Positions 2,287 through 61,400 of a stretch of DNA of 64,000 bases are shown here, in pieces; within the stretch, counting starts at the first letter, position 1; every line of letters starts with the position of its first letter. Under the pieces are notes generated by a model that ran no database searches, had not been told where the DNA came from, and saw only the letters and a program-made list of their open reading frames with translations. Position numbers and translations under genes: made by a program. The DNA is taken from the NCBI GenBank assembly GCA_035390125.1, contig DAOOTD010000001.1:241936-305935 (forward strand), read 5' to 3'. The stretch is from Candidatus Moraniibacteriota bacterium. Lineage in GTDB: Bacteria > Patescibacteriota > Minisyncoccia > Moranbacterales > GWC2-37-73.

Positions 2287-2864
2287 TTATTAAAAATTTC
2301 TGGTTTTGTATATTGTGGAAATTCAAGATAGCCTTCTTTTGAATGTGATTCTATTTTTGTGCTTTCGTTGTTGCCTAGAACCCCAGGAATTATCCTAGAA
2401 ACGGAATCTGCTACAATCATAGCTGGGATTTCGCCGCCAGTCAGAACGTAATCTCCTATAGAAATTTCTTCATCGGCAATATATTTAGCTACCCTTTCAT
2501 CAACTCCTTCATATCTTCCACAAATAAAAATAAGTTGATCGTATTTTGAAAGCCTTTTAGCATCTTTTTGTGTATATTTTTTACCCTTAGCGGAAAATAA
2601 AACAATCCTTACTTTTAACTTTCGACTCCTGATTTTTGATTTTAAAGATTGAACACATTTATATATTGATTCAATCTTAAGCACCATTCCGGCTCCTCCG
2701 CCATAAGGCGTATCATCCACAGTTTTGCGTTTGTCAGTCGTATAGTCACGTAAATTATGAATGTTAATATCTATTAAGCCATTTTTCCGCGCACGCTTGA
2801 GGATTGACTCATTGAAATACGAATCAAAAATCCTAGGGAAAATTGTGATAATATCAAATTGCAT
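2187..2864 (-). CDS. trmD: tRNA (guanine37-N1)-methyltransferase
   Basis: MQFDIITIFP... and DDTPYGGGAGMVLK, the SPOUT TrmD signature. Confidence 0.85.
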   Translation of the reverse strand: MQFDIITIFPRIFDSYFNESILKRARKNGLIDINIHNLRDYTTDKRKTVDDTPYGGGAGMVLKIESIYKCVQSLKSKIRSRKLKVRIVLFSAKGKKYTQKDAKRLSKYDQLIFICGRYEGVDERVAKYIADEEISIGDYVLTGGEIPAMIVADSVSRIIPGVLGNNESTKIESHSKEGYLEFPQYTKPEIFNKWKVPKILLSGNHKEIEKWRKKNSKQKLCMKSQ

Positions 2865-2999
2865 ATGATTTCCTTTTTAGCTTAACTATGGCCATTTTAT
2901 CATATTTTTGGGAAAACAAAAACCCCAGTTACAGTTGCTAAATATTTTTTTTTATATTATCCTTATTTCAGATAATTAATTATTAAAAAAATAAATTAT

Positions 3000-3431
3000 A
3001 TGACAGGAAACATATTTTCATCCTTAGAAAAAGGGTCTCGATTACCAGAGGAACCGTTAAATCTTCATGGTGATAAAAATGGAAAAGAACAAGAACCTTT
3101 AACAAAAGAATTTCATGTGTGTGATTCAATGAGAACACAATTACTAGAAGAAATTGAACAAGCTATTAGACTTCTTAGTAACTTTGATCCAGACTACAGT
3201 CCAGAGGAATTAAAAGGAATAACAGAAAAATATCATTTGATACCAAGAAACAACATTGATGTTGTACTTGGGGAATTAAAAAATATGAAAAAAAAGTTCG
3301 AAGATAATACTTTTTACATGAACTCTTTAAGGAATATGAATTTTAAACTAGTATTATCTGAACGGGAACCCAAAGAAGCTGATAAATATTTGATGGATGG
3401 TTTAATATCAGGAGCTGCTCAGAAACACTAA
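3000..3431 (+). CDS. hypothetical protein (143 aa), lone plus-strand gene
   Basis: Clean ORF ending 25 nt before a strong bidirectional terminator. No recognisable motif. Confidence 0.4.
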   Translation: MTGNIFSSLEKGSRLPEEPLNLHGDKNGKEQEPLTKEFHVCDSMRTQLLEEIEQAIRLLSNFDPDYSPEELKGITEKYHLIPRNNIDVVLGELKNMKKKFEDNTFYMNSLRNMNFKLVLSEREPKEADKYLMDGLISGAAQKH

Positions 3432-3454
3432 AATTCAATAAAATTAAAAATAGC

Positions 3455-3486
3455 AAAAACCCCAGCAAAAAACTGGGGTTTTTATT
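3455..3486. terminator. bidirectional rho-independent terminator
   Basis: ACCCCAG-CAAAAAA-CTGGGGT followed by TTTTT, with an A-run on the other side. It sits between the convergent genes at 3000-3431 and 3509-3844. Confidence 0.7.
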
Positions 3487-3508
3487 ATATAAAGAATTTT
3501 TGAACAAA

Positions 3509-3844
3509 TTACATATTTCCTAAAACATCATCGATGCTTTTCTTGGGTTCATCTGATGTTTTAGCTGGTCTTTCACCGCGATTTGAACCTTCCGGTTCAT
3601 TAATCTTAAGATTTACGCGTGCATTGTTCCTTGCTCCGATAACTCTCAAAATTGTGCGGAGAGCCTTGGCTGTCTGGCCTTCGCGGCCAATTACCATTCC
3701 CATATCAGCGGGATTTACATCCAGTGATATCAGGACGCCCATTTCATCAATTTTTCTTTCAACCTTTACATCATCAGGATTATCAACGAGTGCTTTTACA
3801 GCAAACTCCAAAAACTCCTGATCAGTAGCTCTTTTGTCTGTCAT
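3509..3844 (-). CDS. khpA: KH-domain RNA-binding protein (KhpA/YlqC-like) with basic C-terminal tail
   Basis: LVDNPDDVKVE...MGMVIGREGQTAKALRTIL matches the KH GxxG core. Classical neighbourhood with trmD. Confidence 0.6.
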   Translation of the reverse strand: MTDKRATDQEFLEFAVKALVDNPDDVKVERKIDEMGVLISLDVNPADMGMVIGREGQTAKALRTILRVIGARNNARVNLKINEPEGSNRGERPAKTSDEPKKSIDDVLGNM

Positions 3845-5435: not shown

Positions 5436-5800
5436 AAAATTTATCAAGGCATCTCATAAGCCGGATTCTGTCAAGGATAATCATTTATCTATTTCCGATA
5501 TTGCTATTGGAAATTAAGCGACACTTCCAGTACTTCCTAGGGGAGTGCTAGATACGGTCTTGCATCCGGGTAAGGTTTTAGCCGTTTCACCTCTTATATT
5601 ACTATAAGAACTTACCCTATTTTTTCAATAGGATAATTTAATTCTTTCGAATTAAATCGTCTCTGCTCGCACCTCTAAAATTACTTTCGACGGGAGTTAC
5701 CCGCTACCCCGCTACCTGTCATTTATAAGTGACAGGTGAATGTCCGGACTTTCCTCTCTAATAAAAAATTAGAGCGATTATCTCAATGCCTTGATAAATT
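5436..5800 (-). ncRNA. rnpB: RNase P RNA (bacterial type A-like)
   Basis: The minus strand carries GAGAGGAAAGUCCGGAC (P4 5' strand) and GACAGAAUCCGGCUUAU (P4 3' strand). It also has a GGUGCGAGCAGAGACG J11/12-like block and AAGAGGUGAAACGGC. A 15-bp terminal P1 pairs AAUUUAUCAAGGCAU (5800-5786) with 5436-5452. A P3-like hairpin CUCUAAU-UUUUU-AUUAGAG is present. Confidence 0.8.
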
Positions 5801-16798: not shown

Positions 16799-17398
16799 TT
16801 AGTGCTTATTTTTTATGTGTCCCTTAGTCGGCCCATCAAGCATAATTTTAAAATCTGCTGAAGTATAAGCACACCCTGGTTTTGGCCATTCATCATAATC
16901 AGCACAGCAGTCTTCGTCCATGTGATTCTTATTTTTTCTTGAGCTCCATCCCGGCTTGTCTTTTTCAGCGGGACAATGGGTACCTTTTTTAATATAATCT
17001 GACCTATTATTTTTGGGAGCAGAATTTATTGATTGATGATTGGCATTTTGGGATAATTTTCTTGCAGAATTTTCTTTTTCAATAGCCTCTCTTAATTCTA
17101 TGATTCTATCCGGTTTTTTATTAAACAGTATCTTATCATCACTTTTATGTATAATATTATACTTCTTTGGATTATTGCCATATGTTATATAAGGAACAGA
17201 ATACATATTTACTGTTTCATTTTTTACTGTTTTTTCTCCAATAATAACCTCCTGAAAATATTTCTCGGCCTGATTTAATGTCGTCACTGTTTTGACGCCT
17301 TCAATAAAATTTTCCTCAGCGAATGAAACATCAGACACTAAAAATCCTGCAAAAACACATGAAGTAATCAAAGAATATCTGAAAATACCATTTCGCAT
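16799..17398 (-). CDS. secreted hypothetical protein with Cys-rich C-terminus
   Basis: Signal-peptide-like N-terminus (MRNGIFRYSLITSCVFAGFLVSDVSFA) and a C-terminal cysteine cluster (...HCPAEKDKPGW...DEDCCADYDEWPKPGCAY). Confidence 0.45.
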   Translation of the reverse strand: MRNGIFRYSLITSCVFAGFLVSDVSFAEENFIEGVKTVTTLNQAEKYFQEVIIGEKTVKNETVNMYSVPYITYGNNPKKYNIIHKSDDKILFNKKPDRIIELREAIEKENSARKLSQNANHQSINSAPKNNRSDYIKKGTHCPAEKDKPGWSSRKNKNHMDEDCCADYDEWPKPGCAYTSADFKIMLDGPTKGHIKNKH

Positions 17399-17477
17399 AT
17401 ATTGTAATAGATATGATTATTTTTATATTCTCCTAAAATATACATTATAATACATATTTGGCAATAAATTATTTTAA

Positions 17478-17503
17478 TAAGATAAAGCCCTATTGATTGC
17501 TCA
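17478..17503 (-). terminator. rho-independent terminator after the repeat-protein gene
   Basis: Perfect 11-bp stem AGCCCTATTGA / TCAATAGGGCT with loop TTGC, followed by a T-rich stretch on the minus strand. Confidence 0.6.
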
Positions 17504-17557
17504 ATAGGGCTCATGTTCTGATTTACAGAAAGTTTTCTTTTGTACATTTGCGGCTTA

Positions 17558-18817
17558 TTACTGTTGTACATTTATATTTTTGTAGCAGACTAATGCTATC
17601 ATTCTGAATTCGCTATTCAGATCTTTGTGGAATTTTTTAATTATTTCAGGAGGAATATTTTTCATGATTGATGGCATTATTTCACGGCAATGAGCCAGCA
17701 CCATGCCTTTGAAATCTTCCGGACAATCATTAAAACGATCACTTAACTCATCAATGGATATAATCGTCTTTAAAACATTACTGTATTGGTTTCCGATAAG
17801 CCCATTGAATGTTTCGTCACAATTGTCAAATAAATCTTGAAGTTTTTTCAGTGATGTTTCTTTTTTGATCAACTGGAGAGCATAATGAGCATACAATGGC
17901 ACAAAATGTTCTTCACATTCTTCATGAAGATTATCCAGCTGTTCAAAGGACTCGATTTTACTCAACAATTTGTCGTATGGATCAAAATAGAAATCTTCGA
18001 ATTCTTCCGGACAGTCATTGAAATGTCTTTCGAGATCTTCAATTGATTCAACCGTATATAATAATTTCTGATACGGCCCCTGGAAAAGATCATTGAAAGC
18101 ATCAGGACAATTTCCACGTCGTTCTTCAAGTTCTTCAAACGAAGTGATAGCATCCAAAAGTTCTCCGTAGCGCTGCTTGATAAGTTCATCGAATTGATCC
18201 TGGCCAAGACAATTTCCGTATTTCTCTTCCAGCTCTTCAAGAGAAGCTTCTTTCAGAAATTGCGGAAAAAGTTCCTTATACCTAGAAGTAATGGCTTCGT
18301 CAAATTCTTCAGGACAATTTTCATATCTATCTTCCAGTTCTTCCAAAGAAACTTCTTTCAAAAGTCGTCCATAAAATTCTTTAATAAGTTCATTAAATCT
18401 ACCTGGATTAAGACCATTTCCAAACTCGTCTTCCAGCTCTTCCAGAGAGGCTTCTTGTAGAAATCGGGGGAAAAGGTCTTCATATCGAGCAATAATGATA
18501 TCCTGAAAATTATCAAAATTCATGCTGTTGGCCTCTTTCACCTGTTCAATATCATTGATAACTGAAAGAAGTTCTTTTAGGCGAACACCGATAAGAAACT
18601 TAAATTGCTGGGGACATTTATCGTTTTGCCGACTAAGTTCTTCAAGATCCTGAATGTTAGCCAGAATATCCTTGAACCCATATTCTGATATTGGCTCATT
18701 TGATTTGGATGATGAAATCGGATTTTTTGTAATCGTTTTTGAGATTGGTTCATCAACAAAAAGATTCTCCCACCAGTTGTCCAGCCGCTCCAATAATCTT
18801 ATTAATGCTTTTAACAT
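17558..18817 (-). CDS. acidic tandem-repeat protein (about 10 repeats of 32-35 aa, each with one conserved Cys)
   Basis: Repeat consensus roughly S-[LI]-EELE-[DE]-x-[FY]-x-[ND]-C-P-[ED]-[ED]-F-x3-[IL]-x2-[RQ]-Y-x-[EK]-L-[FL]-P-x-F-L-K-EA. Examples: NCPEEF, NCPDAF, DCPEEF, NCDETF, DCPEDF, KCPQQF. Confidence 0.6.
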   Translation of the reverse strand: MLKALIRLLERLDNWWENLFVDEPISKTITKNPISSSKSNEPISEYGFKDILANIQDLEELSRQNDKCPQQFKFLIGVRLKELLSVINDIEQVKEANSMNFDNFQDIIIARYEDLFPRFLQEASLEELEDEFGNGLNPGRFNELIKEFYGRLLKEVSLEELEDRYENCPEEFDEAITSRYKELFPQFLKEASLEELEEKYGNCLGQDQFDELIKQRYGELLDAITSFEELEERRGNCPDAFNDLFQGPYQKLLYTVESIEDLERHFNDCPEEFEDFYFDPYDKLLSKIESFEQLDNLHEECEEHFVPLYAHYALQLIKKETSLKKLQDLFDNCDETFNGLIGNQYSNVLKTIISIDELSDRFNDCPEDFKGMVLAHCREIMPSIMKNIPPEIIKKFHKDLNSEFRMIALVCYKNINVQQ

Positions 18818-22627: not shown

Positions 22628-22669
22628 AAAAAAATAAGGCTCAAGCAAGCCTTATTTTTATCGCGTACC
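22628..22669. repeat. direct repeat copy 2; also the terminator immediately 3' of tRNA-Glu
   Basis: Same about 40 nt as 22096-22137. The repeat overlaps the last 3 nt of the tRNA. Confidence 0.7.
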
Positions 22670-22737
22670 ACCACGGGGAATCGAACCCCGGTTACCAGGA
22701 TGAGAACCTGGCGTCCTAGCCGCTAGACGATGGTGGC
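22666..22737 (-). tRNA. tRNA-Glu (anticodon CUC)
   Basis: Minus strand reads GCCACCATCGTCTAGCGGCTAGGACGCCAGGTTCTCATCCTGGTAACCGGGGTTCGATTCCCCGTGGTGGTA. Manual cloverleaf fold with G1-U72. CCA is not encoded. Confidence 0.75.
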
Positions 22738-24138: not shown

Positions 24139-26100
24139 TTAATCGCTTGATGTAATAACTTTTTCTCTTGATTCTTTCTTGTCATTTTTTTCAGTTGCCT
24201 GGTTTACTGGCTGTGAAACTACCTGATTTGGTGGCCATTGTATTGGCGCCATTTTTGCTAGTGGACTTGATTCTGGATTTTCTGTAGGCGATACTTTGTA
24301 ATATTTAAGCAAAAACTTCATAACCTGTCCAAATGCTGGTGCAGCTGAAGATTCTGCCCATTGTACATCTCTGGGATTTACAATTTTTACTAAAACAACA
24401 AATTTAGGATCATCTATAGGTGCATATCCAGCAAAAGAACCTATGTTCATACCTTCTTCATATCCTTTTGAACCAGATTTTGCAATCTGGGCTGTTCCCG
24501 TCTTCCCTCCCACAAGATAACCTGGAACATCGGCACGTTTTCCGTGGCCTTCAACCACAACGCTTCTGAGCATTTTTGATATCTGCTCAGCCGTACTTTC
24601 TGAAATAACTTGCCTTACCTCTTCAGGCTTAATTTCTTCTTCATGCCCGTCGCTATAGCGTAACCTATCAACAATCTGCGGTTTCATTAGAACACCCTTA
24701 TTGGCAAATACGGCGTACCCGGAAATTAGTTGCAAAGGAGTTACAGAAATACCCTGCCCGAAAGATGCAGTAAAAAAGTTAATGGTTATTTTTGGATTAT
24801 TTAGATTTTTTATATTTCCAGGAACTTCTCCAGGCAATTCTATGCCACTTTTTTCCCCAAATCCAAACCTTTGTATATAATCAGCAAATTTCTTATTGCC
24901 AACTAATTTTTCAATATATATTACTCCTGTATTCAGTGATTTTTCTAAAACTTGAGTCATTGTCTGCACTCCATTAGCTTTCATGTCAGAATTATGTATA
25001 CTATACCCTGCTTCTTTAACAACTCCTGTATCTGTATAAGTAGTATCTGGATTAATTTTTCCGCTATCTATTCCTGTTGCTACAGTAAAGGCTTTGAAAA
25101 CTGAGCCTGATTCATATGGTTGACTGACAGCAGAGTTGACGAATCTGGAAATATCTTCTGTCTTTGAGAATTCATTGGGATTAAAACTTGGTTGGTTTGC
25201 CATAGCCAATATCTTTCCAGTTTTAGGATCCATAACTATAATAGTCCCGCTATCTGCCCTAAAACCTTCAACTGCTTCCTTTAATATTTTTTCCACTTCA
25301 AATTGAACGGTATGATTTATGGTTAAAATAAGATCAGGACCATCTTTTTTCTCCTGCAGTTTTCGTTCACTCATAGGTATCCACCTTCCACGTGAATCGC
25401 TTTCCTGCGAAAGTGAGCCTGACTCTCCGCAAAGTTTCTTTTCCCAATAAGCTTCAAGCCCATACATTCCGCGTTGCTGTTCACCATCTGATCCGACAAA
25501 CCCAATAACTTGGGCAGCCAGTTCTTTAGCCGGATAATATCTAAAGCTCTCTCCCAAAAAATATACCCCGGCTATCTTCGCCTCTTGTATTTTTCTAACT
25601 TCATCATCAGAAAGTTTATGTTTGAGTATTTCAAACATATCATTAGGATCACTGCTTAATTTATCTTTTATAAAATCTTTATCTAATCCTAAAATATCAG
25701 ATAATTTTTCACTTGCTTCATTCACATTTTCAATTTCTTTAGGAACTGCATAAGCCATTTGAAGCTCTTGATTTACAGCTATTGGATAAAGCTGATTCTC
25801 ATCTTGTAAAAAAACCTCTCCGCGCTTAGCTAAAAGTTTAGTAGTACTTTTATGCTGGTTTTCAGCCAATTCTAAATAGGTAGAATGCCTATTCACCTGA
25901 AGAACAAACAATTTTGCTAAAATGCAAAAAGCTGTAAAAAAGATAAAAAAAATTAAACAATATATTCTCCAATTATTTTCTCCACAATCAGCATACGGCA
26001 TTTTTTGTTTTATTGTTTTTGTCTTATTCATAGCCATCGAGTCCAAAAATAATCTAAGCTTCTCAATTTTTACTGCCCTTTGAATCATTGCCATAGGCAA
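24139..26100 (-). CDS. ftsI: penicillin-binding protein (FtsI/PBP3-like divisome transpeptidase)
   Basis: SVFK (SXXK) and KTGTAQ motifs, N-terminal TM. Located in mraZ-rsmH-ftsL-ftsI order. The start probably lies at an internal Met to avoid overlap with ftsL. Confidence 0.8.
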   Translation of the reverse strand: MPMAMIQRAVKIEKLRLFLDSMAMNKTKTIKQKMPYADCGENNWRIYCLIFFIFFTAFCILAKLFVLQVNRHSTYLELAENQHKSTTKLLAKRGEVFLQDENQLYPIAVNQELQMAYAVPKEIENVNEASEKLSDILGLDKDFIKDKLSSDPNDMFEILKHKLSDDEVRKIQEAKIAGVYFLGESFRYYPAKELAAQVIGFVGSDGEQQRGMYGLEAYWEKKLCGESGSLSQESDSRGRWIPMSERKLQEKKDGPDLILTINHTVQFEVEKILKEAVEGFRADSGTIIVMDPKTGKILAMANQPSFNPNEFSKTEDISRFVNSAVSQPYESGSVFKAFTVATGIDSGKINPDTTYTDTGVVKEAGYSIHNSDMKANGVQTMTQVLEKSLNTGVIYIEKLVGNKKFADYIQRFGFGEKSGIELPGEVPGNIKNLNNPKITINFFTASFGQGISVTPLQLISGYAVFANKGVLMKPQIVDRLRYSDGHEEEIKPEEVRQVISESTAEQISKMLRSVVVEGHGKRADVPGYLVGGKTGTAQIAKSGSKGYEEGMNIGSFAGYAPIDDPKFVVLVKIVNPRDVQWAESSAAPAFGQVMKFLLKYYKVSPTENPESSPLAKMAPIQWPPNQVVSQPVNQATEKNDKKESREKVITSSD

Positions 26101-26476
26101 CTGAAGAATTTTCTTCGAGATATTTTACACTCGAGACATTAATCATGCCAGCACTCTTGGATTCTTCTTCGATACGATACAATGATTTCAATTCGGCCTC
26201 TTTTATTCTTAGAGATTCTTTAATTTTCTCCTGCTCAGCAATTTCTTTTTCCACTTTGCGTATTTCAATGCCTTTGACAGCCGTCTGATTTATAGAATAA
26301 ACATAGAATAATCCTGAAAATACAGCACATGCAAAAACAATAAACACTGGGTTTATAAATCCCGCTGTGTGTGATTTTAGCGCCTCAATAGGCTGCCAAT
26401 TTGTTTGTATTTTTCTTTTTATTTTTGGTTGCCAATTTAAGGGTTTTTTCCTTATGACAACAGTTCTATTGATCAT
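26063..26476 (-). CDS. ftsL: FtsL-like small bitopic cell-division protein
   Basis: Single TM followed by a coiled coil. Position between rsmH and ftsI. Confidence 0.5.
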   Translation of the reverse strand: MINRTVVIRKKPLNWQPKIKRKIQTNWQPIEALKSHTAGFINPVFIVFACAVFSGLFYVYSINQTAVKGIEIRKVEKEIAEQEKIKESLRIKEAELKSLYRIEEESKSAGMINVSSVKYLEENSSVAYGNDSKGSKN

Positions 26477-28177: not shown

Positions 28178-28303
28178 CTATTCTTCTATTTCTTTCATTT
28201 CTTTACCACAGCAGACCAAAACACCGCCACCAACAGTGATAACTTCAACTTCATTTCCGCAAATTTCGCAGCGATATATTTCGCCTATTTTTTCGACTGC
28301 CAT
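28178..28303 (-). CDS. desulforedoxin-like small protein (41 aa, Cys4 iron centre)
   Basis: Translation is [41 protein letters not shown], matching the desulforedoxin pattern YKCELCG...GGG.LVCCG. It is below the ORF-track size cutoff. Confidence 0.65.
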
Positions 28304-28322: not shown

Positions 28323-29513
28323 TTATTTGTACGATTTATTTTTATTTTTCAGATATGAATAATATTCTTCGTTATTGCTGTTTTTTATTGAATATTTTTC
28401 AATCGCTTTTTTACAAGCTCTTTCGCCAATTTCTTTCCTTAAATTTTCATCAATAACAAGCCTCTCTATTTTTTCAAACCATTCTTTTTCTCCACTCGCA
28501 ACAAAGCCATCAATTCCATCCTTAATTGCTTCTCTGAAAGTCTGAGTTGCTGCTGCTATAGTTGGAATTTTCATTATTCCAGCTTCAAAAAATTTCAGTT
28601 CTGAACGAGCTTCGCAAAACGGATTCCCGATTTCCAGTGGCGCTAAATTAATATCCACATTGGCAATATTGGCAAAATGTTTTTCTCTAGGAACAAAAGA
28701 CAGCCTTATTGTCCTACTGGAAAATTTATTAAGCCCATTCTCTATATCCAGCGGCCCTGCTAAAAATAATTCGACATTTTCATATTTTTCCATGATCTGT
28801 ATCAATGGCCCAGTGATAGTTGCGAAATCTTTATTATGGCTGGATGTTCCGCTGAAATAACCTATCCTAACAGCTTCGTTAGCCTTTAGCTTAGTTAGCT
28901 TTTTAGCTTCAAGGATTCCAGCAGCTATTTCAATATCTTTTTCAGAAAGCTTATTGGAAACAACAAAAACTTTTTTGCCATATTCTTTTATTTTTTCCGC
29001 CAGAAAAACAGTTGAGGTTGTACAAACTTTAACATAAGGATCTCTAAGTATTTCTCCGCCTATTCCATTTTCAAAAAATTTCTTTTCAAATTCATTGGCA
29101 TTTTTGAAAAAGTCCTGCTGTTTGATATATCCGGGATCAAAAAGCAGATCATCAGTTTCAAAAATAATTTCCTTATTTTCTTTCTTAAGCTTCTTTATAA
29201 ATTTTTGGATTTGCGGAATATAGGAAACCTTGTGAAAAACAAAAATGTTGAACTTGTCCGCACAGGACATCAGCATTGGATGTTCCTGGACAACAGAAGA
29301 GCATTTAAGCCCATGTAGACTCAATTCCTCTGCTACATTAAGCACGCGATAACGTGAGCTATCCCCCACTATTCCGCTGGAAATGAACAATACGTCGCCT
29401 GATCCAGCAGGATGCAACATTGAAAAGAAAACCTTTATAATCTTTTTCAGCCCATAAAAAAACCCTTCTTGCCCGAAAATGGCTCTTATTTTTCCTAAAT
29501 ACCTTTTAAGCAT
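28323..29513 (-). CDS. glycosyltransferase, GT4-like (GT-B fold)
   Basis: C-terminal E-x7-E region ([18 protein letters not shown]...DGIDGFVA). Confidence 0.65.
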
Positions 29514-29617
29514 AAGATTTATTCCTTTATAAATTACAGGAATCGCCTTGCAATTTCAAGGCTACCTTTAAACTTTTGGAATGATTCAATTTTACCTTAA
29601 AAATTTTTTAAAATCAA

Positions 29618-29645
29618 AAAGGATGGCAAATCCCATCCTTTTTAT
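29618..29645 (-). terminator. terminator after the CARDB gene
   Basis: AAGGATGG-caaatc-CCATCCTT, followed by a T-run on the minus strand. Confidence 0.5.
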
Positions 29646-29668
29646 TAGCAAGTCTTTTTTATCTTGAG

Positions 29669-30591
29669 TTAATGAATAGGAATTACGGTTTTAGTGGAAA
29701 CATTATTTCCCTCGTTGCTTTCATTAACATCATCATCAGTATCAACAACAACTTTGGTCGCATAAGTTGACCATCCACCATAAGTATACTCGCAAGAAAC
29801 ATCCTTGCTTTCTCCAGCTTTCAATTCATCAATTTTGCCATCACAAGAAGCCGAATAGGCATTTGACCACCATTCCCATTTAAAGGAACCAGCGTTTGTT
29901 TGGCCCTTATTTTTAATGGTAATTTTAACTTTGAATTCTTCCCCCATTACCGGGTCATGATTAAAATCATATTCACTGACAGACAAATCAGCTTTTCCAT
30001 GAATAGGAACAACTTGTTTTTTGGCAACATTATTATTTTCATCGCTTTCATCTACATCATTCTGGGAATCAACAATAGCTTTTGTCGCATAATCTGACCA
30101 GCTTGAATAAGTATAATTGCATTGGACAGTGTTGCTGCCGCCAGCCTGAATGGCTGATACTTTCTTCTTGCATATCTGTTCAGAAGCAGTTGCCCACCAT
30201 TCCCAATAAAATTCTCCTGACGCAGCTTGCCCTTTATTGGCAATTTCCACTATAACAACAAATTCAGATCCCATTTTTGGTTCTTCACTAAAAACATATT
30301 TTTCACGTAGAGATCAGCCTTTTTAACCTCTACAGGTACTGCCGTGGCTGTTCCATTAGCCGGAGGATTTACATTTGGAGTAATTTCCTTTGCAACTTCT
30401 TCATTTGCAGGTGTGTTATTTTTAACAGTTTCATTTTCCTTTTGGGAATTTTTAATCAAGCTATTAACAAAAAGAGTGGCTAATATAATAACTGCTGCAG
30501 ATAAAATAATTATTATAAATATTAAAATTTTCTTTGAATTAGGCGCTTTGCCTGATTCATTATTGATATTGGATACATTTTCTTGTTCCAT
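29669..30591 (-). pseudogene. membrane-anchored surface protein with two CARDB-like domains, interrupted by a 1-nt frameshift in an A5 run (about 30299-30303)
   Basis: ORFs 30250-30591 (TM anchor plus linker, ends ...KADLYVKN) and 29669-30274 (starts ...EKYVFSEEPKMGSEFVVIVEIANKG) together reconstruct a repeat that aligns to the second CARDB repeat (KADLSVSEYDFNHDPVMGEEFKVKITIKNKG). One extra A restores the frame. Confidence 0.6.
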
Positions 30592-30634
30592 ATTTTTATA
30601 ATTTAATATTTAATTTATTCTATTTTAGCTTATC

Positions 30635-31144
30635 TTACTGGGTTTGTCTAATTTTATTTTTCTGCCTCTTGTATAAAAAAATAGCATAAACAATGACTAA
30701 TATGGCTACATTCGGAAAAAATATAATTGGATTGCCCCAGCCGATTCCATCAATCATAAAATCAGATATTGGCCAGAGAAACGGGGTCGGAAAAAAATCA
30801 AAAGAATGGCTGGGAATATCTATTAAAATGTGAAGCCCCCAGGCGCCCAAAATCCAGTATGGTTTTTTGCGTATAAGCCAAACAGCAAAAAATGTCGCAA
30901 AAAAAATAATCAGGCTATGGGTAATGCCATAGAGAATATGCACATACCCTGGGATAAGGCTTTGATCCATATGCCCTTTGGAAAAATCTATTTCTTGAGC
31001 AAATCCCAGTATCCTAGCAGCCATAAAAATTCCAAAAGAAAAAATATCAGGACTTATTCCAATTAAAAAAGCTTTTATATAATCTTTGGCATTTTTTCTG
31101 CCAAAAGCTATGCCCCCGTAAAGACCGTGGGAAATTATATCCAT
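30635..31144 (-). CDS. membrane-bound metal-dependent hydrolase (DUF457/YdjM family)
   Basis: MDIISHGLYG... N-terminus, 4-5 TM helices, conserved His residues. Confidence 0.55.
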   Translation of the reverse strand: MDIISHGLYGGIAFGRKNAKDYIKAFLIGISPDIFSFGIFMAARILGFAQEIDFSKGHMDQSLIPGYVHILYGITHSLIIFFATFFAVWLIRKKPYWILGAWGLHILIDIPSHSFDFFPTPFLWPISDFMIDGIGWGNPIIFFPNVAILVIVYAIFLYKRQKNKIRQTQ

Positions 31145-31164
31145 ATTATTTTTGTGTCCTAAAA

Positions 31165-31929
31165 TTATTTAAGGAGCACTCCCCCATCAGCAACTATAAT
31201 CGATCCTGTCATATATGAAGATGCTTCGCTTGCCAAAAATAAAGCTATTGTTGCCATTTCATCAGGTTCGCCCATTCTTTTCATCGGTATAGACTTGGCA
31301 AAATCACTGGGATCAACTTGGCTGGTTCCTTCTGTTTGCACTCCGCCTGGAGCAATAGCATTAACTCTTATTCCCTTATCAACTAATTCCAGCGCTAAGT
31401 TTTTAGTAAACCCCCATACTCCATGCTTTGAAGCATCATAAGCTGCCAAACCAACCATACTTGGATGCAAGGCATCTATTGAAGCTATATTAATTATATT
31501 TCCTCCACCATTTTTTATCATTATTTTAGCAGCTTCTCTCGAGCACATAAAAACACCGCGAAGATTAACCATCTGAACTTTATCCCATTCTTCCACGCTC
31601 ATATCCATAGCATTAGCAAAAGGGAAAATTCCGGCATTGTTAATCATGATGTCAATTTTTCCAAAGTTTTTTTCAGTTTCATTTATCAGGTTTTTTACAT
31701 CTTCTTCAAGACTAACATCAGTTTTAACAAAAATAACCTTAACTCCAAATTCTTTGGAAACAAGACTGGCTTTTTGATTGCCAGCTTTCTCGTTTATATC
31801 TGCTATAACAACATCTGCTCCTGCTTCAGCAAACCGGCGCACTATTCCATAGCCTATACCCAAGGATCCACCCGTAACAATCACTGATTTGCTTTTAAAA
31901 TCAAAAATTTCTTCAATCTTTTTATTCAT
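31165..31929 (-). CDS. SDR-family oxidoreductase
   Basis: TGGSLGIG Rossmann motif, NNAG, and the catalytic Y-x3-K (YDASKHG). Confidence 0.8.
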   Translation of the reverse strand: MNKKIEEIFDFKSKSVIVTGGSLGIGYGIVRRFAEAGADVVIADINEKAGNQKASLVSKEFGVKVIFVKTDVSLEEDVKNLINETEKNFGKIDIMINNAGIFPFANAMDMSVEEWDKVQMVNLRGVFMCSREAAKIMIKNGGGNIINIASIDALHPSMVGLAAYDASKHGVWGFTKNLALELVDKGIRVNAIAPGGVQTEGTSQVDPSDFAKSIPMKRMGEPDEMATIALFLASEASSYMTGSIIVADGGVLLK

Positions 31930-31993
31930 ATTTTTTAATTATTTAATTTATTATTTTATTTTTTCTGCATTTCCTACAATAATATTTATTTTA

Positions 31994-32680
31994 TCATATC
32001 ACTTCATAAAACACATCCTTTCTTTCAATAATAACTTTCCACTGGTTCTTTTTAGCCACACGATAGAGTTTTTTATTGGGATTAAAACATATGGGCTTGC
32101 TGACTACTTTGAACATCGGAATATCAGACTCGGTATCTCCAACAGCTATGGAATTTTTGATAGTTAATTTTTCTTTTTCTATAACTCTTTGCAGAACTTT
32201 AGCTTTATTGCTTATCATCTCTCTATGCATTATCGCGCCAGTAAATATTCCTTTTTCGTTCACTTCATACATCCTTCCATATGCTTTATTAAAACCCATA
32301 CGTTTACAAAATTCATCCACTATTATTTTAGGAGAATTAGAAATAGCCAACAGAAAATAATCTTTTTTCTTAAGCTCTTGGATTAAATCTCTGGTATATT
32401 GATAAGTCTGGCTTCTTTTAGCAGCTATGACTTTTTTAGAAATTTTTATAAAATCATTATATTTAACTCCTTTTATGTTAAGCTCAAACGCCCTAACCAC
32501 TCTATCTATATATTTTTCATATGAATCTTTCCTGTTAAGCCAGTTTTTGTGCTGTTTAGAATAATATTTTTTAGCAGATGATTTAAACAGCCCAGCCTCA
32601 ATCAATGCTTCAGTTATTTCTATTAAAAGACTAGACCTGAAAATTGTTCCATCTATATCAAATATTGCAATTTTTTTCAT
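31994..32680 (-). CDS. HAD-IB family hydrolase (phosphoserine phosphatase-like)
   Basis: FDIDGTI motif I; GDTESD motif IV. Confidence 0.65.
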   Translation of the reverse strand: MKKIAIFDIDGTIFRSSLLIEITEALIEAGLFKSSAKKYYSKQHKNWLNRKDSYEKYIDRVVRAFELNIKGVKYNDFIKISKKVIAAKRSQTYQYTRDLIQELKKKDYFLLAISNSPKIIVDEFCKRMGFNKAYGRMYEVNEKGIFTGAIMHREMISNKAKVLQRVIEKEKLTIKNSIAVGDTESDIPMFKVVSKPICFNPNKKLYRVAKKNQWKVIIERKDVFYEVI

Positions 32681-32701
32681 ATTTCCATTTTAAATTTTAA
32701 G

Positions 32702-35149
32702 CTATAGGCTTATTTCTACTTTTTCACCATTAACCGCTTCTCCGGAAATTATTTTTTTAGCAATAATTCCTTCAACTGTATCTTCAATATATCTGTTTAC
32801 TGAACGCGCTCCGAAAATTGGATTATACCCTTTTTGGATTATGTCATTAATAACATTTTCACTAAAAGTTATTTCTATATTTTTTTCTTTAGCTACACGA
32901 CGTGCAAATTTATCTAATTGAAGACGTACAACGCTTACTAATTCCCGGCCATTGAGTGGACGGAAAAATATAACGCCATCAAAGCGATTCAAAAATTCGG
33001 TGCGAAATATGTTATTCTCAATTACGTAATCTATGATTGCCTCTTTTATTTCCTCTGCTGGAATATTTTCTTCAACCATTTTTTTAATCAATGATGCACC
33101 CGCATTAGATGTTGCAATAATCATGGTATTAGTAAAATTTATTTTTTCTCCGAAGGCATCTGTAACAAATCCTTCGTCAAGAATTTGAAGAAATATGTCT
33201 AAAATTTCAGGATAAGCTTTTTCTATTTCATCTAAAAGCAATAAAGAATAAGGATTGTCTTTTATTTGCGTAACTAACCTCCCCGGCTGATTAAGCTGAT
33301 TCGATCCCAATAAACGATCGATTGAATTGGGCATTTGAAATTCGCTCATATCTAAGCGAACTATTCTTGATTCATCCCCGAAATAAGCTTTTGCCAGAGC
33401 TTTAGCAGTTTCTGTTTTACCGACTCCAGTCGGTCCGAGAAAAAGAAAGCTTCCTATAGGTTTTTTTGAATTTCCTATTCCACTACGAGATCTTCGAAAA
33501 GCTTCAGCTACATGGTTTATAGCTTCTTCTTGGCCAATAACCTGTCGATGAAGCGTATCTTCAAGGTTTAATAGTTTTTTTCTTTCTTCGCCCTCAACCT
33601 GTCCGTGCTTCACTCCGGTTTTTAACGTCAGATAATCATTGACTGTTTTTTCAGTAATAAATTGTTCATCAGACTTTTTTTCCCAAAACATAAGAACATT
33701 CATTGCCAAATCCAATGCACGTTCAGGCAATGGAAATTCCCAATTATATCTACTACTGTTAGTTATGATTTCCTTTATAGATTTATAGGTAAATATTATC
33801 CTTTTATTTTCATATCTTTGCATTTGAAAAAGCAAAATTGCCGCTGTTTCATCTTCAGATGGCTCACGCATTTCAATAACCTCAAAATATTTTATAATCT
33901 GATCATGTTTCTCAATTAAGTGATGGTATTCTTTAGTGGTTGATGTGGCAATTATTTGAAAAGTTGGAACCTCGAGAAACTCACTAATAACCGCTGAAAT
34001 GTCTGGATGAAAAGTATTAACTTCCTTGCCTATAAAATTTTCCATATTTTCAATAACCAAAACAACATTACCTGCATAACTAGCTTCATGAAAAAGCAAA
34101 CGCATAAAATTCTCTACATCTTCTCCCTTGTTTATAGCATCAGAAATAGCCCGGCCTAAATCCAGCAGAAGTATCCTAATATCCTCTATTTCTTTTTCTT
34201 CATCTATTCGTATATTTCGTGCCAATGAATGAATGAGAGTTTTCTTGCCAACTCCAGAATTACCGACTATTAATACGCAATTCTGATCCGGCCGCTGAAT
34301 AATCATTTTAAGAATTTCATATTCTTCATTCCGTCCAATAAGTTCTGTCTTGCCGTAATCAGTCCAATCGCTTTCTGATAAATCCTTACAATATTTGTCT
34401 AAGTTAACGGTATAACCATAATGCCAATGCATTCCAATTGGCCTTATTTTTTTTAAATTTTCTAAACGCCAAAATCTTCCTGAATTGTTTTTTTTCTCTT
34501 CATCTAAAAACTCATGCCTTATTAAATATTGATAATCTTTTTGCGTAAGCCCTCTGGCTCTAAGAAAATCATCCAATAATTTTTCATCACTCATTATTTC
34601 TTTTGGAAATCTTTTGCCAACTATGCCAAGCCTTCCGCATATCCTTTCAAATGATTTGTGCTTTAAAAATTCATCAGGCCCCATTTCCGTTGCTACAATT
34701 TTTGTGTCATTAAGATAGCAATAAATTGAAAAAATTATCCAACCTAAAACAAAACCGCCTGAAAAAAACGGGTTAATAAGTCCCTTTATTGAGAATGCAA
34801 ATAAAAACAAGAAGAATAACGGGGCGCTGATCCAGATAAAGTTAATTACTATTCCAAAAAATATAACTGCAATAAATAATGCTATTCCAAAACAAATTAT
34901 TACCAAGCGGACTATTATGCCAATGAAGCGAGAAATTATATTCTCAATTATAATCTCAAGTGTCCTAAAGGGATGCAATCCGCGCCAGCTTTGTATAGAA
35001 ACGTCCCGATGCCAAGGATAAACCAACGTTTTTAAAAGTCGGAATATGGAGAAATTCCTAAAAACAAAAAACAGAAAGTTTTTCCAAATTTCCAATAGCT
35101 CCCAAACGCCTTGACTGTAATACCAATAAAAAAAATTAGGCTTTTTCAT
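32702..35149 (-). CDS. membrane-anchored double-AAA+ ATPase of the ClpA/ClpB class (N-terminal multi-TM domain, no M-domain)
   Basis: About 170 aa with 4 or more TM helices. D1 Walker A is GNSGVGKKT. D2 reads LFLGPTGVGKTETAKALA...LLLLDEIEKA...GARSVNRYI (ClpB-like sensor 2). No IGF/LGF loop was seen. Confidence 0.65.
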   Translation of the reverse strand: MKKPNFFYWYYSQGVWELLEIWKNFLFFVFRNFSIFRLLKTLVYPWHRDVSIQSWRGLHPFRTLEIIIENIISRFIGIIVRLVIICFGIALFIAVIFFGIVINFIWISAPLFFLFLFAFSIKGLINPFFSGGFVLGWIIFSIYCYLNDTKIVATEMGPDEFLKHKSFERICGRLGIVGKRFPKEIMSDEKLLDDFLRARGLTQKDYQYLIRHEFLDEEKKNNSGRFWRLENLKKIRPIGMHWHYGYTVNLDKYCKDLSESDWTDYGKTELIGRNEEYEILKMIIQRPDQNCVLIVGNSGVGKKTLIHSLARNIRIDEEKEIEDIRILLLDLGRAISDAINKGEDVENFMRLLFHEASYAGNVVLVIENMENFIGKEVNTFHPDISAVISEFLEVPTFQIIATSTTKEYHHLIEKHDQIIKYFEVIEMREPSEDETAAILLFQMQRYENKRIIFTYKSIKEIITNSSRYNWEFPLPERALDLAMNVLMFWEKKSDEQFITEKTVNDYLTLKTGVKHGQVEGEERKKLLNLEDTLHRQVIGQEEAINHVAEAFRRSRSGIGNSKKPIGSFLFLGPTGVGKTETAKALAKAYFGDESRIVRLDMSEFQMPNSIDRLLGSNQLNQPGRLVTQIKDNPYSLLLLDEIEKAYPEILDIFLQILDEGFVTDAFGEKINFTNTMIIATSNAGASLIKKMVEENIPAEEIKEAIIDYVIENNIFRTEFLNRFDGVIFFRPLNGRELVSVVRLQLDKFARRVAKEKNIEITFSENVINDIIQKGYNPIFGARSVNRYIEDTVEGIIAKKIISGEAVNGEKVEISL

Positions 35150-35206
35150 TGCTAGTTTTTGTTTTGATTTACTTAATTTTACATCATAAAAAATCGCTTT
35201 GCAAAT

Positions 35207-37018
35207 ATGAAAATAACGGGTATAATCGAAACAATGAAAGATTTAAAATTGTCATCAAAAGATTACCAATTTTTTCTTTTTAAGGCCCTGTTTTGGTTAG
35301 GCGCAGCCTGGATTGGTTTCATAGCCGCATTAGGAGGTTTTTTTTATGCGCCTTATTTATGGATTTTGATTGTTATTCTAGGAATCTTTCTGTTTTATTA
35401 TTTTATATTAAAAAATGGATATTCTGTAATTATTTCCCGTGAAATGCTGGCAATAAGCATGATATCAATTCTTACGGTAATCTTATTTTCTTATTTTTCA
35501 ACTCCCACTATTTTTTCAGGCAGGGATCAGGGATCTATTAGCGAAGCTGCTATAAGATTAGTTCAGAATCATACTTTTGAATTTTCAACTCCTGCTAGCA
35601 CGGAATTTTTTAAAATTTATGGACCAGGCCGAGCACTCAATTTTCCTGGTTTTTATTATTCCAATGAAGGTAACCTGACAACTCAATTCCCCTTGGTTTA
35701 CATAGTCTGGCTAGCACTTTTTTATTCTCTTTTTGGAACCATCGGATTCATAGTGGCTAATGCTATTTTGTTTTTTATTTTTATTCTTTCTTTTTATTTA
35801 CTTGCCAGGCTATTCTTAAGATTTCCCTATGCTTTATTAACACTAACTTTTACCTTAACTTCTTTTTCTTTCATGTGGTTCTCAAAATTTACGCTCAGTG
35901 AAAACATGGCATTGTCTCTTTTATGGCTATCCATATTGTCATTGATGCTTTTTCTGAAAAACTTTAGAAGATTTTATTTTTACGTATTCCTTATGTCTTC
36001 AACACTTCTTTTTTTCACACGCATTGAAGGAATCGCTATTATGATTGTTTCTGCAATCATAATCCTATACAATAGTGCTGTCAGAAAATTCATAAAAGAA
36101 AAAATTTTCCTGAGGTTCTTTCTGCCAGTAATATTTTTTACCATAATTTTTATAGCAAATATTTTCAGGGATTTCAGTTTTTATCACGAGGTTGCAAAAG
36201 TATTTTTATCCCCTTTTATTTACTCTCAAGACAGATATGCCGACGTACTTAAAGATATCGTTTTGCCAGCTTTTTATATTGAAAAGTTGTTCTTAATATA
36301 CGGATTAATAGGTTTTTTTATAGTCGGAGCTATTGGCATATTTTTTTTCATTTGGAAAAAAGAGTATTATAAGCTTATCCCTCTTTTTATAGCCCTGCCT
36401 ACTTTTATATATTTCTTTGATTCTCATATAACTAATGATAACCCTTGGATGCTCAGGCGATTTATGTTCTCTCTTTTGCCTATCGGAATTTTCTATTCTG
36501 GACTAATTTTGGGACGAGGCTTGGAAAATATGAAAAGTAAAAAAATCTTTATTTTTTCAGGCATTATTTCTATATTGCTTATTGTCAACAATTTTCCACC
36601 ATTTTTAAAATATCTAACTTTTTCAGAGAATCAAGGACTTGATAAGCAGACAGCAACATTCGCAAAAAATTTTTCCTCTCATGATCTCATCCTTATGGAC
36701 CGTGAAACAACTACTGATGGTTTAAATATGATTAGCGGACCCCTTAGTTCAATTTATGGGAAAAATGCAGTATATTTTTTCAATATAAATGATCTGGCAA
36801 AATTAGACCTAAAAAAATTCAGTAACACATATCTTGTTGCTCCAAATAAACAGGTGCCTTATTATTTAAATAGTTCAATAGCCAATAGGCTTGTACCAGA
36901 AAATGAATATAATTTTACTTTTTTAAAATTAAAAGCAAATCAGAATGATGGCGTCAAATGGCCAGAAAAAGAAGAGATTTCGGCAAGCGGTAAAATATTT
37001 AAAATTAAAAACAATTAA
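35207..37018 (+). CDS. polytopic membrane glycosyltransferase, GT-C fold (ArnT/PMT-like)
   Basis: More than 12 TM segments. The first external loop SGRDQGSISEAAIRL resembles the GT-C D-E-x-x-Y-A-E-I-A loop motif. Confidence 0.45.
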   Translation: MKITGIIETMKDLKLSSKDYQFFLFKALFWLGAAWIGFIAALGGFFYAPYLWILIVILGIFLFYYFILKNGYSVIISREMLAISMISILTVILFSYFSTPTIFSGRDQGSISEAAIRLVQNHTFEFSTPASTEFFKIYGPGRALNFPGFYYSNEGNLTTQFPLVYIVWLALFYSLFGTIGFIVANAILFFIFILSFYLLARLFLRFPYALLTLTFTLTSFSFMWFSKFTLSENMALSLLWLSILSLMLFLKNFRRFYFYVFLMSSTLLFFTRIEGIAIMIVSAIIILYNSAVRKFIKEKIFLRFFLPVIFFTIIFIANIFRDFSFYHEVAKVFLSPFIYSQDRYADVLKDIVLPAFYIEKLFLIYGLIGFFIVGAIGIFFFIWKKEYYKLIPLFIALPTFIYFFDSHITNDNPWMLRRFMFSLLPIGIFYSGLILGRGLENMKSKKIFIFSGIISILLIVNNFPPFLKYLTFSENQGLDKQTATFAKNFSSHDLILMDRETTTDGLNMISGPLSSIYGKNAVYFFNINDLAKLDLKKFSNTYLVAPNKQVPYYLNSSIANRLVPENEYNFTFLKLKANQNDGVKWPEKEEISASGKIFKIKNN

Positions 37019-37023
37019 ATATT

Positions 37024-38355
37024 ATGTTTGATTTAACTGAAGAAATAAAACTTGAAAATTATTTGCGCAAAAAATATTTGATTGCTAAGTTTTTCTTATA
37101 TTTGTTTTTTCTGATAGGCACACTTTTTATATTGAACCGAATTATTTTTCCTCTCATATCATTTTCTTTATCTTTTGACAATATAAACTCTCCTAAAAAT
37201 ACGCTGGACTTATCCAGTACAATGTCCCAAGCTGAAGCAATAAAAAAAGGCTTTGTCAAAAATAATGAGGATATGATCTTTACTGCAAGTCCCTTAGGAA
37301 ACTTCTCTTATTCCACTATTAAATTAAAGACAAGCAAGGATTCTGAAAATATCGAAGGAACTTCCATAAAGATACGCAGATCTTATGAAGCTTTTTTCTA
37401 TCCAACTGGTGATCCGGTTGGTTTCAGAAATGGAACTCTTCTTTTTGCAAACGGTTCTTATTATATAATTTCCGGTGATGCTCTCAGAAAATTTTCAAAT
37501 AATAATATAGTCGAACAGCTTGGTTATTCAAAAGACTCTTTTCTGAATGTTTCTTTAGATGATTTAAAATACAACAAAAATGGAGCTGATATAACTGATG
37601 CAAATATTTACCCAGATGACACTTTTTTTAATATTGGCGACACTTACTATCAACTAAAAAACCGCCAGCTTTTCCCTTTCGTAAGTGCCGGGGCCTTTTT
37701 GTCAAAATTCGAATCCGGACAAGCAATTATAAAAAATGATGATTTTTTAAACCGATATAAGATATCAGAAACATACCTTGGATTCACGGATGGCACATTA
37801 GCATCTTTGGCTCCATCGGTTTTTTTCCTGAGCGAAGAAAAAAGCTATCCTATATCAAATGCAGAAACTTTTGTCAAAAAGGGGTTCAATTGGGACGATG
37901 TTATTCAGATTAATTCGGAGGAACTCAGTATTTATAAAAAACAAAAACAATTCACTTATAACCAGCCACATCCGGATGGAACTTTATTTTTGGATAGGAA
38001 GACAAATACATATTTCATCATTAAGGATAAACAAAAGCGTCCCATAGAAAGTTTAGCTGTTGCCAAAACATATTCAAAACAGAAACCAGTAATAGTAGAT
38101 TCCGAAGAAAGCGAAACTATTGTTTCATGCCAATTGAAAAAAGTATTTTTTCCAAAAAACACATACGAATGTGATGCTATGCTTAATTCTATGAATAATT
38201 TTATTGGTATTGATTTTCAGATTGATTTAAAATTTGCAAATAATGCAAAAATAAATAATGCCAGCATAACCTTCTTTACAGCAAAGAATTTTGATAATTT
38301 CATGGCTTTTCTCTCGGGAACAAAAACGAGTCTAATAATTAATTATACTAAATAG
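37024..38355 (+). CDS. hypothetical N-terminally anchored extracytoplasmic protein (443 aa)
   Basis: Single N-terminal TM. No family recognised. Translationally coupled to neighbours. Confidence 0.4.
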   Translation: MFDLTEEIKLENYLRKKYLIAKFFLYLFFLIGTLFILNRIIFPLISFSLSFDNINSPKNTLDLSSTMSQAEAIKKGFVKNNEDMIFTASPLGNFSYSTIKLKTSKDSENIEGTSIKIRRSYEAFFYPTGDPVGFRNGTLLFANGSYYIISGDALRKFSNNNIVEQLGYSKDSFLNVSLDDLKYNKNGADITDANIYPDDTFFNIGDTYYQLKNRQLFPFVSAGAFLSKFESGQAIIKNDDFLNRYKISETYLGFTDGTLASLAPSVFFLSEEKSYPISNAETFVKKGFNWDDVIQINSEELSIYKKQKQFTYNQPHPDGTLFLDRKTNTYFIIKDKQKRPIESLAVAKTYSKQKPVIVDSEESETIVSCQLKKVFFPKNTYECDAMLNSMNNFIGIDFQIDLKFANNAKINNASITFFTAKNFDNFMAFLSGTKTSLIINYTK

Positions 38356-40689: not shown

Positions 40690-40725
40690 TTATTTTGTTT
40701 GATACATGCATTTTTCAAGATATTT

Positions 40726-40796
40726 TCCGAGGTCGTCTAATGGTAGGACAACAGGTTCTGGTCCTGTTTATTGGAGTTCGAATCTCTACCTCGGAA
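40726..40796 (+). tRNA. tRNA-Gln (anticodon CUG)
   Basis: TCCGAGGTCGTCTAATGGTAGGACAACAGGTTCTGGTCCTGTTTATTGGAGTTCGAATCTCTACCTCGGAA. Cloverleaf with U1-A72, typical of tRNA-Gln. Confidence 0.7.
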
Positions 40797-40843
40797 CAAA
40801 AGCAATAAAGTACTTTATAAAATTAAATTATGGAGGCAGGACT

Positions 40844-41158
40844 ATGACGAATGATGAAGAAAAAAAATATGCTAAAATCCGTAGCCTCTGTGACATAATA
40901 GGAGGCTTAAATTCAACTGAGAAACAACGTCAAAGAGCATGGGAACAGCTCATGCCTATGGCAAGTAGCACTACGCTAAGCACCTTAATCGCAGCTAAAT
41001 ATTCTTGGCTAGAATTTACAGATGAATATAAAGAGAAAGCATGGCGAGAATTAAAAAAACGAAATATAGAAAACGATGAGATTAATTTGCATTATTTAGC
41101 GGTCAACGCTCCAGAACCATGGTGTGAAGAAGCCAGAGAATTAGAAGAAAAAACATAA
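40844..41158 (+). CDS. hypothetical protein (104 aa)
   Basis: GGAGG RBS 6 nt before the ATG at 40844. The longer tracked ORF (40706-) would overlap the tRNA and is rejected. Confidence 0.45.
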   Translation: MTNDEEKKYAKIRSLCDIIGGLNSTEKQRQRAWEQLMPMASSTTLSTLIAAKYSWLEFTDEYKEKAWRELKKRNIENDEINLHYLAVNAPEPWCEEARELEEKT

Positions 41159-44930: not shown

Positions 44931-44938
44931 TTATTATG

Positions 44939-45011
44939 AGCCGATGGCCGGGATTGAACCGGCGACCTATGCGTTACGAGTGCATTGCTCTACCAGCTGA
45001 GCTACATCGGC
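44939..45011 (-). tRNA. tRNA-Thr (anticodon CGU)
   Basis: GCCGATGTAGCTCAGCTGGTAGAGCAATGCACTCGTAACGCATAGGTCGCCGGTTCAATCCCGGCCATCGGCT. Confidence 0.75.
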
Positions 45012-61231: not shown

Positions 61232-61304
61232 TATACAATATAAATAATAAATTGGCTATAAATGATTTTTTCGTAAATAAAAAAACACTTCACTGAGCGT
61301 TTTT

Positions 61305-61378
61305 TGGCACGGGATAGAGGAATCGAACCTCTGCCAACGGTTTTGGAGACCGCCGTACTACCACTATACGAATCCCGC
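61305..61378 (-). tRNA. tRNA-Trp (anticodon CCA), CCA encoded
   Basis: GCGGGATTCGTATAGTGGTAGTACGGCGGTCTCCAAAACCGTTGGCAGAGGTTCGATTCCTCTATCCCGTGCCA. Confidence 0.7.
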
Positions 61379-61400
61379 ATTGTCACTTTTACATGACAGG

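Follow-up and report, generated by a model that had tools for sequence, protein, structure and literature searches.

A recent one-nucleotide homopolymer deletion probably inactivates a conserved membrane-anchored CARDB gene in a strain of uncultured Moranbacteria

Two overlapping reading frames at one locus

Within the 64-kb stretch of DNA that was analysed here (the window), two open reading frames (ORFs) on the minus strand overlap around a run of five adenines. The locus raises the question of whether these are two genes or the two parts of a single gene, and, if a single gene has been broken, whether the break is real, whether it is reversible, and whether the full-length protein is still made. 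The features concerned are:

30250-30591, minus strand: upstream ORF of 113 aa, consisting of 97 native residues, 16 out-of-frame residues and a TAG stop
29669-30274, minus strand: downstream ORF of 201 aa, starting at internal Met107 and containing CARDB-1 minus strand A and the complete CARDB-2
30299-30303, minus strand: A5 homopolymer, site of the 1-nt deletion; the ancestral A6 encodes Lys97-Lys98
30622-30650, minus strand: promoter-like site TAGACA-17-TAAAAT, about 30 nt upstream of the ATG (consensus scan 10/12, pattern match only)
29610-29644, minus strand: intrinsic-terminator-like hairpin with U-run, 25 nt past the stop codon (RNA fold)

The ORFs share 25 nt (positions 30250-30274), and the minus strand around the homopolymer reads GTG AAAAA TATG, the A5 run corresponding to T5 on the plus strand, with the junction sequence GAT CTC TAC GTG AAA AAT ATG. 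Insertion of one A into this run yields a single 307-aa ORF with the junction peptide DLYVKKYVFSEEPKMGSEF. The repeats of the repaired gene align without gaps across the junction (56 of 108 positions identical, E=7e-37), and the 19-residue junction peptide matches the internal repeat DLSVSEYDFNHDPVMGEEF at 10 of its 19 positions. A preliminary description of the locus had given the 25-nt overlap, the T5 run, the repair to a protein of roughly 307 aa and the repeat-aligned junction, all of which are reproduced, and the junction peptide that it predicted is encoded exactly by two natural relatives with A6 (L006 and L007, see below).

The 97 native residues of the upstream ORF comprise the cytoplasmic tail, the membrane helix, the linker and the first six residues of CARDB-1, and this ORF alone has no Pfam match; the downstream ORF has no signal and no anchor. 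In the NCBI annotation the upstream ORF is a hypothetical protein and the downstream ORF a CARDB domain-containing protein. Judged from the promoter-like site and the hairpin with its U-run (-15.5 kcal/mol, z=-3.5, with none of 200 shuffles equally stable), the gene appears to form its own transcription unit.

Architecture and family of the repaired protein

The repaired protein consists of an N-terminal membrane helix, a disordered linker and two Ig-like CARDB domains:

30454-30528, minus strand: hydrophobic membrane-anchor segment, residues 22-46, ILIFIIIILSAAVIILATLFVNSLI (read from the sequence)
30017-30318, minus strand: CARDB domain 1, repaired residues 92-192, with the frameshift within its first β-strand (Pfam and repeat alignment)
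29690-29992, minus strand: CARDB domain 2, repaired residues 201-301, covering positions 2-101 of the 101 of the Pfam CARDB profile

Pfam CARDB (PF07705) matches the repaired product in two stretches with 119.2 bits, compared with a gathering cut-off of 22.7. AlphaFold2 predicts the repaired protein with a mean pLDDT of 82, exceeding 90 in both CARDB domains; the model consists of a single long helix (residues 19-53), a disordered linker and two β-sandwiches, with residues 94-101 forming the first strand of CARDB-1 (strand A). In a Foldseek comparison one domain superposes on the CARDB domain of Pyrococcus furiosus PF1109 (3idu_A; TMt 0.82, rmsd 1.7 Å over 107 columns), and the domain pair resembles the tandem C-terminal barrels of transglutaminases.

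A protein search of a 5.8-billion-cluster collection returned 63 relatives, most of them 300-350 aa long, from Moranbacteria and other Patescibacteria, and 40-66% identical. An alignment of 36 sequences shows a common plan, in which a short polar N-terminus (MEQE...) is followed by a hydrophobic helix, a variable linker rich in Thr, Ser, Pro and Glu, the motif (V)KKADLYVK(S/K)Y and two CARDB domains, both of which contain W-E-W-W, two Cys and a D-x-D-E-S-N-E-x-N-N loop. The membrane-anchor segment is conserved in 36 of 36 aligned homologues, and the repaired 307-aa product is colinear with the 35 others, with D93, L94 and Y99 near the break being invariant. Single-CARDB versions of the family exist as well: the shorter matches P0056-P0060 were considered as truncations, but proved to be paralogues that are complete in themselves, each having an anchor and a single CARDB domain. 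The anchor-plus-CARDB family is conserved in Moranbacteria and other Patescibacteria, and the N-terminal hydrophobic helix suggests a location at the cell surface. The locus is best described as one gene, encoding a predicted type-II membrane-anchored surface protein, in which a short cytoplasmic tail and one transmembrane helix are followed by a variable, low-complexity linker (about 45 residues) and by a pair of CARDB domains outside the cell. A literature search on CARDB in Patescibacteria and on pseudogenes in CPR bacteria found nothing relevant.

Many of the homologues (P0002-P0050) carry the JGI label "subtilase family serine protease". No protease domain is present in the repaired protein or in the Pfam columns of the homologues (CARDB/DUF11, and PF03859 on two), and the label was probably carried over from CARDB-containing proteases. 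Two family members lie on contigs named as non-Patescibacteria, L019 (DYDB01000001.1, "Micavibrio sp.") and L022 (CAYSJW010000004.1, "uncultured Gammaproteobacteria"), and these names may reflect taxonomic mislabelling or mis-binned MAGs.

Close relatives carry an intact gene with six adenines

Clustering at 90% identity groups the 201-aa fragment with one 307-aa protein (P0064) and a related 212-aa fragment with another (P0065); these two proteins are encoded on contigs L006 (Logan ERR7570002) and L007 (Logan ERR14064716), respectively. Both are intact genes with A6, which are 94% (L006) and ~89% (L007) identical to the window at the nucleotide level, and which read GTGAAAAAATATG at the site, whereas the window and contigs L001, L002 and L005 read GTGAAAAATATG. 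Both share the neighbourhood of the window (ClpB-like, HAD, SDR and YdjM, then the gene), and in L006, whose contig reaches further, the glycosyltransferase, a desulforedoxin-like gene of 41 aa, MraZ and RsmH correspond as well. Some 50 homologues at a greater distance are also single ORFs, and 11 of 12 loci in species-representative genomes are intact, most of them reading GTG AAA AGY at the site and thus having only A4. Since most homologues have A4 and L006 and L007 have A6, the longer run arose within this species group, where A6 is the ancestral state and A5 a derived 1-nt deletion. The preliminary description had read the locus as a CARDB protein split by a 1-nt homopolymer deletion and had proposed to compare the run length across strains; this comparison gives A5 in the window strain and A6 in its two closest relatives, in which, as in the ~50 homologues, the gene is intact. 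Orthologues split at the same point, which it had named as evidence to the contrary, are found neither in L006 and L007 nor among these homologues.

A 212-aa product of contig L003 (P0005) was considered as a broken orthologue and rejected, since the site itself has A6, the near-identical L007 is intact and the coverage is 3.1x. In this contig (ENA ERZ2648158, NODE_12070) positions 690-860 contain T5->T4, GG->G and A5->A4 together with a scrambled stretch, about 160 nt in all. The three 1-nt homopolymer deletions are confined to columns 158-317 of the alignment; elsewhere the contig is almost identical to L007, and the patch looks like low-coverage assembly noise.

A distant homologue on contig L009 (the same as L018; GCA_043803385.1, JAZDKA010000009.1, positions 2669-3657) is split into ORFs of 132 aa and 218 aa. 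It is 57% identical at the amino acid level and has a different neighbourhood. The contig reads ATAAAAAAGCC (A6), while A7 is needed for I-K-K-A-D-L-Y-V-K, which places the break eight codons upstream of the site in the window. This split appears to be an independent 1-nt homopolymer frameshift, observed on a single contig of a MEGAHIT assembly, so that an error is possible.

The window is also a mosaic with respect to L007. Positions 29458-37247 are 96.6% identical over 5.3 kb (ClpB-HAD) and then 89.9% identical over the next 2.5 kb; within 30170-30320, tracts of 82 nt and 67 nt identical to L007 lie around the frameshift, and the linker just upstream is highly diverged. The mosaic identity suggests recombination among co-occurring strains.

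The deletion recurs across assemblies

If the real genome carried A6, the CARDB gene would be intact and A5 an artefact of sequencing or assembly. Homopolymer length is the classic indel error, the 160-nt patch of L003 demonstrates that such noise exists in the collections, and an unchanged dN/dS (see below) would also fit an intact gene. Against this, 14 contigs encode exactly the 201-aa product and 15 the 113-aa product, the two always being adjacent. These contigs come from at least three JGI metagenomes (3300025715, 3300009771 and 3300025902), from NCBI (MAG proteins HOW60393.1 and HRZ33721.1), from ENA and from Logan, although they may be only partly independent, since some of the JGI and TPA assemblies may share read sets. 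Three A5 contigs that were retrieved match the window at 100% identity along 1.5-6.6 kb.

No assembly contains an A6 version of the window strain, in a comparison that drew on identical proteins and on the members of their clusters. A collection of 15 billion proteins lacks the exact repaired protein, and the protein search found no full-length match of at least 90% identity on the background of the window strain. Run-length variants were also sought with a variable-gap and a 40-nt exact pattern on metagenome contigs and with a 40-nt pattern on genome contigs, with no match in these collections, which apparently lack the window strain.

Short-read consensus calling is dependable for runs as short as five adenines. 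The window contains 422 A/T runs of at least 6 nt (291 A6/T6 and 131 of at least 7 nt), yet no other split gene is evident among its ~70 ORFs, and the genes adjoining the CARDB gene equal their counterparts in L006 and L007 in length, which indicates that the assembly is not generally error-prone at homopolymers. Overlaps at 17368-17571 and 26063-26476 were considered as frameshifts and rejected, since they arise from the choice of the longest start; L006, for example, has genes of 137 and 632 aa where the longest ORFs of the window are 137 and 653 aa.

The recurrence of A5 on 14-15 contigs from several sources, with no A6 version among them, thus argues for a genuine, strain-fixed deletion and makes a one-off sequencing error unlikely; minority A6 alleles may occur within samples, the data being at consensus level. 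An artefact is accordingly considered very improbable, if marginally less so than the other alternatives.

Age and consequence of the deletion

The repaired gene has a dN/dS of 0.13 in comparison with L006, neighbouring genes having values of 0.1-0.36. With L007 as outgroup, 11 synonymous and 6 nonsynonymous changes fall on the window branch, compared with a neutral expectation of 1:4 (P=8e-5), and the window copy shows no secondary decay in the form of extra stops or indels. The low dN/dS on this branch and the lack of further lesions point to a deletion that is recent relative to the split from L006. Formally, the same purifying signature is equally expected if the gene were still expressed via some rescue.

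With respect to the usual signs of a pseudogene, intact colinear orthologues are present at the same locus (L006, L007), and the lesion is reproducible at the assembly level, on 14-15 contigs from several samples and assemblers. Relaxed selection or decay is not seen, which fits a very recent event and is on its own no proof of inactivation.

The break affects Lys97/Lys98, which in the AlphaFold2 model belong to strand A of CARDB-1 (residues 94-101). Replication slippage is the presumed origin, by which one A would have been removed from the A6 run in GTG AAA AAA TAT (Val-Lys-Lys-Tyr). Translation from the true start would then end after 16 out-of-frame codons and leave a 113-aa stub of anchor and linker, while any synthesis of the two CARDB domains would have to start at internal Met107, minus the anchor and strand A. 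Since the downstream product would have neither of these, the protein would no longer be displayed on the cell surface. Loss of function and of surface display, and likewise the absence of any rescue mechanism, are what we infer.

In sum, a recent, strain-fixed homopolymer frameshift that inactivates a conserved anchor-plus-two-CARDB gene, and that is neither a switch nor a recoding device, is the likely explanation of the locus. Among the three options that the preliminary description had left side by side, a genuine pseudogene is thus the best supported, whereas a sequencing error is unlikely and slippage-based phase variation finds no support at the assembly level.

A possible but improbable reversible switch

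As a slipped-strand contingency switch, the A5/A6 tract would turn a surface adhesin off and on. The product is indeed a predicted surface protein, close strains have runs of different length, and the distant homologue on L009/L018 has been split independently (A7->A6), eight codons upstream in the same KKADLYVK region. Run length, however, tracks lineage, in that the 14-15 contigs of the window strain all have A5 and both relatives A6 at the consensus level. The tract is also short: in Neisseria meningitidis, homopolymers of at least 8 nt are predominantly the variable ones, and A/T tracts are mostly weak candidates (PMC5084427), so that A5/A6 falls below a homopolymer criterion of ~8 nt. Furthermore, the tract is not maintained, with A4 in most homologues, and is not distinctive among the hundreds of A/T runs of at least 6 nt in the window. 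This explanation is very improbable.

The same low probability attaches to a variant, in which A5/A6 and the nearby A-runs of the KKADLYVKK motif at the linker/CARDB boundary together would act as a low-rate reversible adhesin switch, or in which part-expression would occur via tRNA-Lys slippage. Two independent homopolymer frameshifts within a region of 10 codons (in the window strain and in L009) would fit a low-rate switch, and part-expression by tRNA-Lys slippage would explain the intact signature of purifying selection. If true, a low-rate switch would mean on/off control of a surface adhesin in episymbiotic Patescibacteria.

Possible but improbable recoding or functional split

The full-length protein could also still be made from A5, either via -1 ribosomal frameshifting on G AAA AAT or via transcriptional slippage. 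A -1 shift at Lys97 would, from the sequence, restore exactly V-K-K-Y, the signature of purifying selection persists on the window branch, and tRNA-Lys is slippage-prone on A-runs (PMC5009743). G AAA AAT, however, does not conform to X XXY YYZ, since G precedes AAA AAT, and no downstream structure is predicted in stretches of 81 nt and 99 nt (z=+0.5 and +0.6), where 142 and 145 of 200 shuffles, respectively, fold as well. With its non-canonical heptamer and without a structure, programmed frameshifting was rejected. By eye, no AGGAGG-like element is present 10-14 nt upstream. The A6 strains have identical flanks, which in them are plain coding sequence; this indicates that no recoding signal has evolved, and the two-ORF arrangement is not conserved, the relatives having a single ORF. 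For transcriptional slippage in bacteria, runs of ~9 A/T have been described (PMC5009743), compared with 5 nt in the window. Recoding is very improbable, marginally more so than a switch; a recoded product would contain the junction-spanning peptide (K)ADLYVKKYVFSEEPK, and the stub product the peptide ADLYVKNMFLVK.

Least probable of all is an adaptive split into a small membrane peptide and a soluble two-CARDB protein as separate products, since, although both ORFs remain open and the downstream ATG lies 22 nt upstream of the stop of the upstream ORF, so that re-initiation is possible in principle, the downstream product has no export signal and no strand A of CARDB-1, the split is not conserved in relatives, and the 16-residue out-of-frame tail has no homologues.

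Significance and genomic context

Inactivation by a homopolymer frameshift is a known and ordinary kind of event. If the frameshift is what it seems, one strain of uncultured Moranbacteria has recently lost a conserved surface protein that its sister strains (~90-95% ANI) keep, which would be a minor example of how strains of Patescibacteria vary at their surface and raises no new mechanism or question. Its value lies mainly in annotation: public records list one frameshifted gene as two separate proteins, and contain what is probably an unflagged pseudogene.

The wider window is a gene-dense segment of a Patescibacteria chromosome with 34% GC, containing the dcw cluster, an RNase P RNA and seven tRNAs. 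Features outside the CARDB locus include:

5441-5793, minus strand: bacterial RNase P class A RNA (Rfam, 122.5 bits), filling an ORF-free gap
28178-28303, minus strand: 41-aa desulforedoxin-like gene (PF06397, N-terminal domain of desulfoferrodoxin) between the glycosyltransferase and mraZ, kept in L003 and L006
61305-61900, minus strand: Thr-Tyr-Thr tRNA cluster followed by Trp, among the seven tRNAs; the others lie at 22665-22737, 40726-40797 and 44938-45011

Two of the tRNA genes lie inside mechanically called ORFs, tRNA-Gln (40726-40797, plus strand) in an ORF at 40706-41158 (plus strand) and tRNA-Trp (61305-61378, minus strand) in a 51-aa ORF at 61231-61386 (minus strand), and both ORFs are probably spurious. 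Two intervals of more than 700 nt each (345-1095 and 2287-2999) contain no ORF of at least 50 aa and no Rfam or tRNA match at gathering thresholds.

Comparison with known systems

Homopolymer-indel pseudogenes of AT-rich bacteria are similar to the locus in the contraction of a Lys-Lys poly-A run by one base, in the presence of intact syntenic orthologues and in the annotation of two overlapping fragments as separate genes. The window case differs in that it would be very recent, with no secondary decay and a low dN/dS on its branch, and in that it lies in a streamlined Patescibacteria genome, with no other split gene in 64 kb.

The locus resembles the contingency loci of Neisseria, Campylobacter and Haemophilus in that a homopolymer lies within a surface-protein gene, near its 5' part, and in that the on and off frames are one repeat unit apart. 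By contrast, the tract in the window has 5-6 nt, is A/T rather than G/C and is not conserved in homologues, and at the assembly level its length is constant within the window strain. Overlapping 0 and -1 ORFs at an A-run are also found in programmed -1 frameshifting (dnaX, IS3-family) and in the slippage rescue of Buchnera and Blochmannia, but the window has no canonical heptamer, no stimulatory structure and no conserved split, and its run is far below ~9 nt.

As for the protein itself, the two domains score far above the Pfam cut-off for CARDB proteins (PF07705; PF1109, PDB 3idu), the Ig-like β-sandwich superposes, and the acidic D-x-D/E-S-N/D-E-x-N-N loop is kept. Unlike these proteins, the window protein has a small, Patescibacteria-specific architecture, in which an N-terminal signal-anchor and a linker are combined with one or two CARDB domains bearing conserved W-E-W-W and paired Cys motifs.
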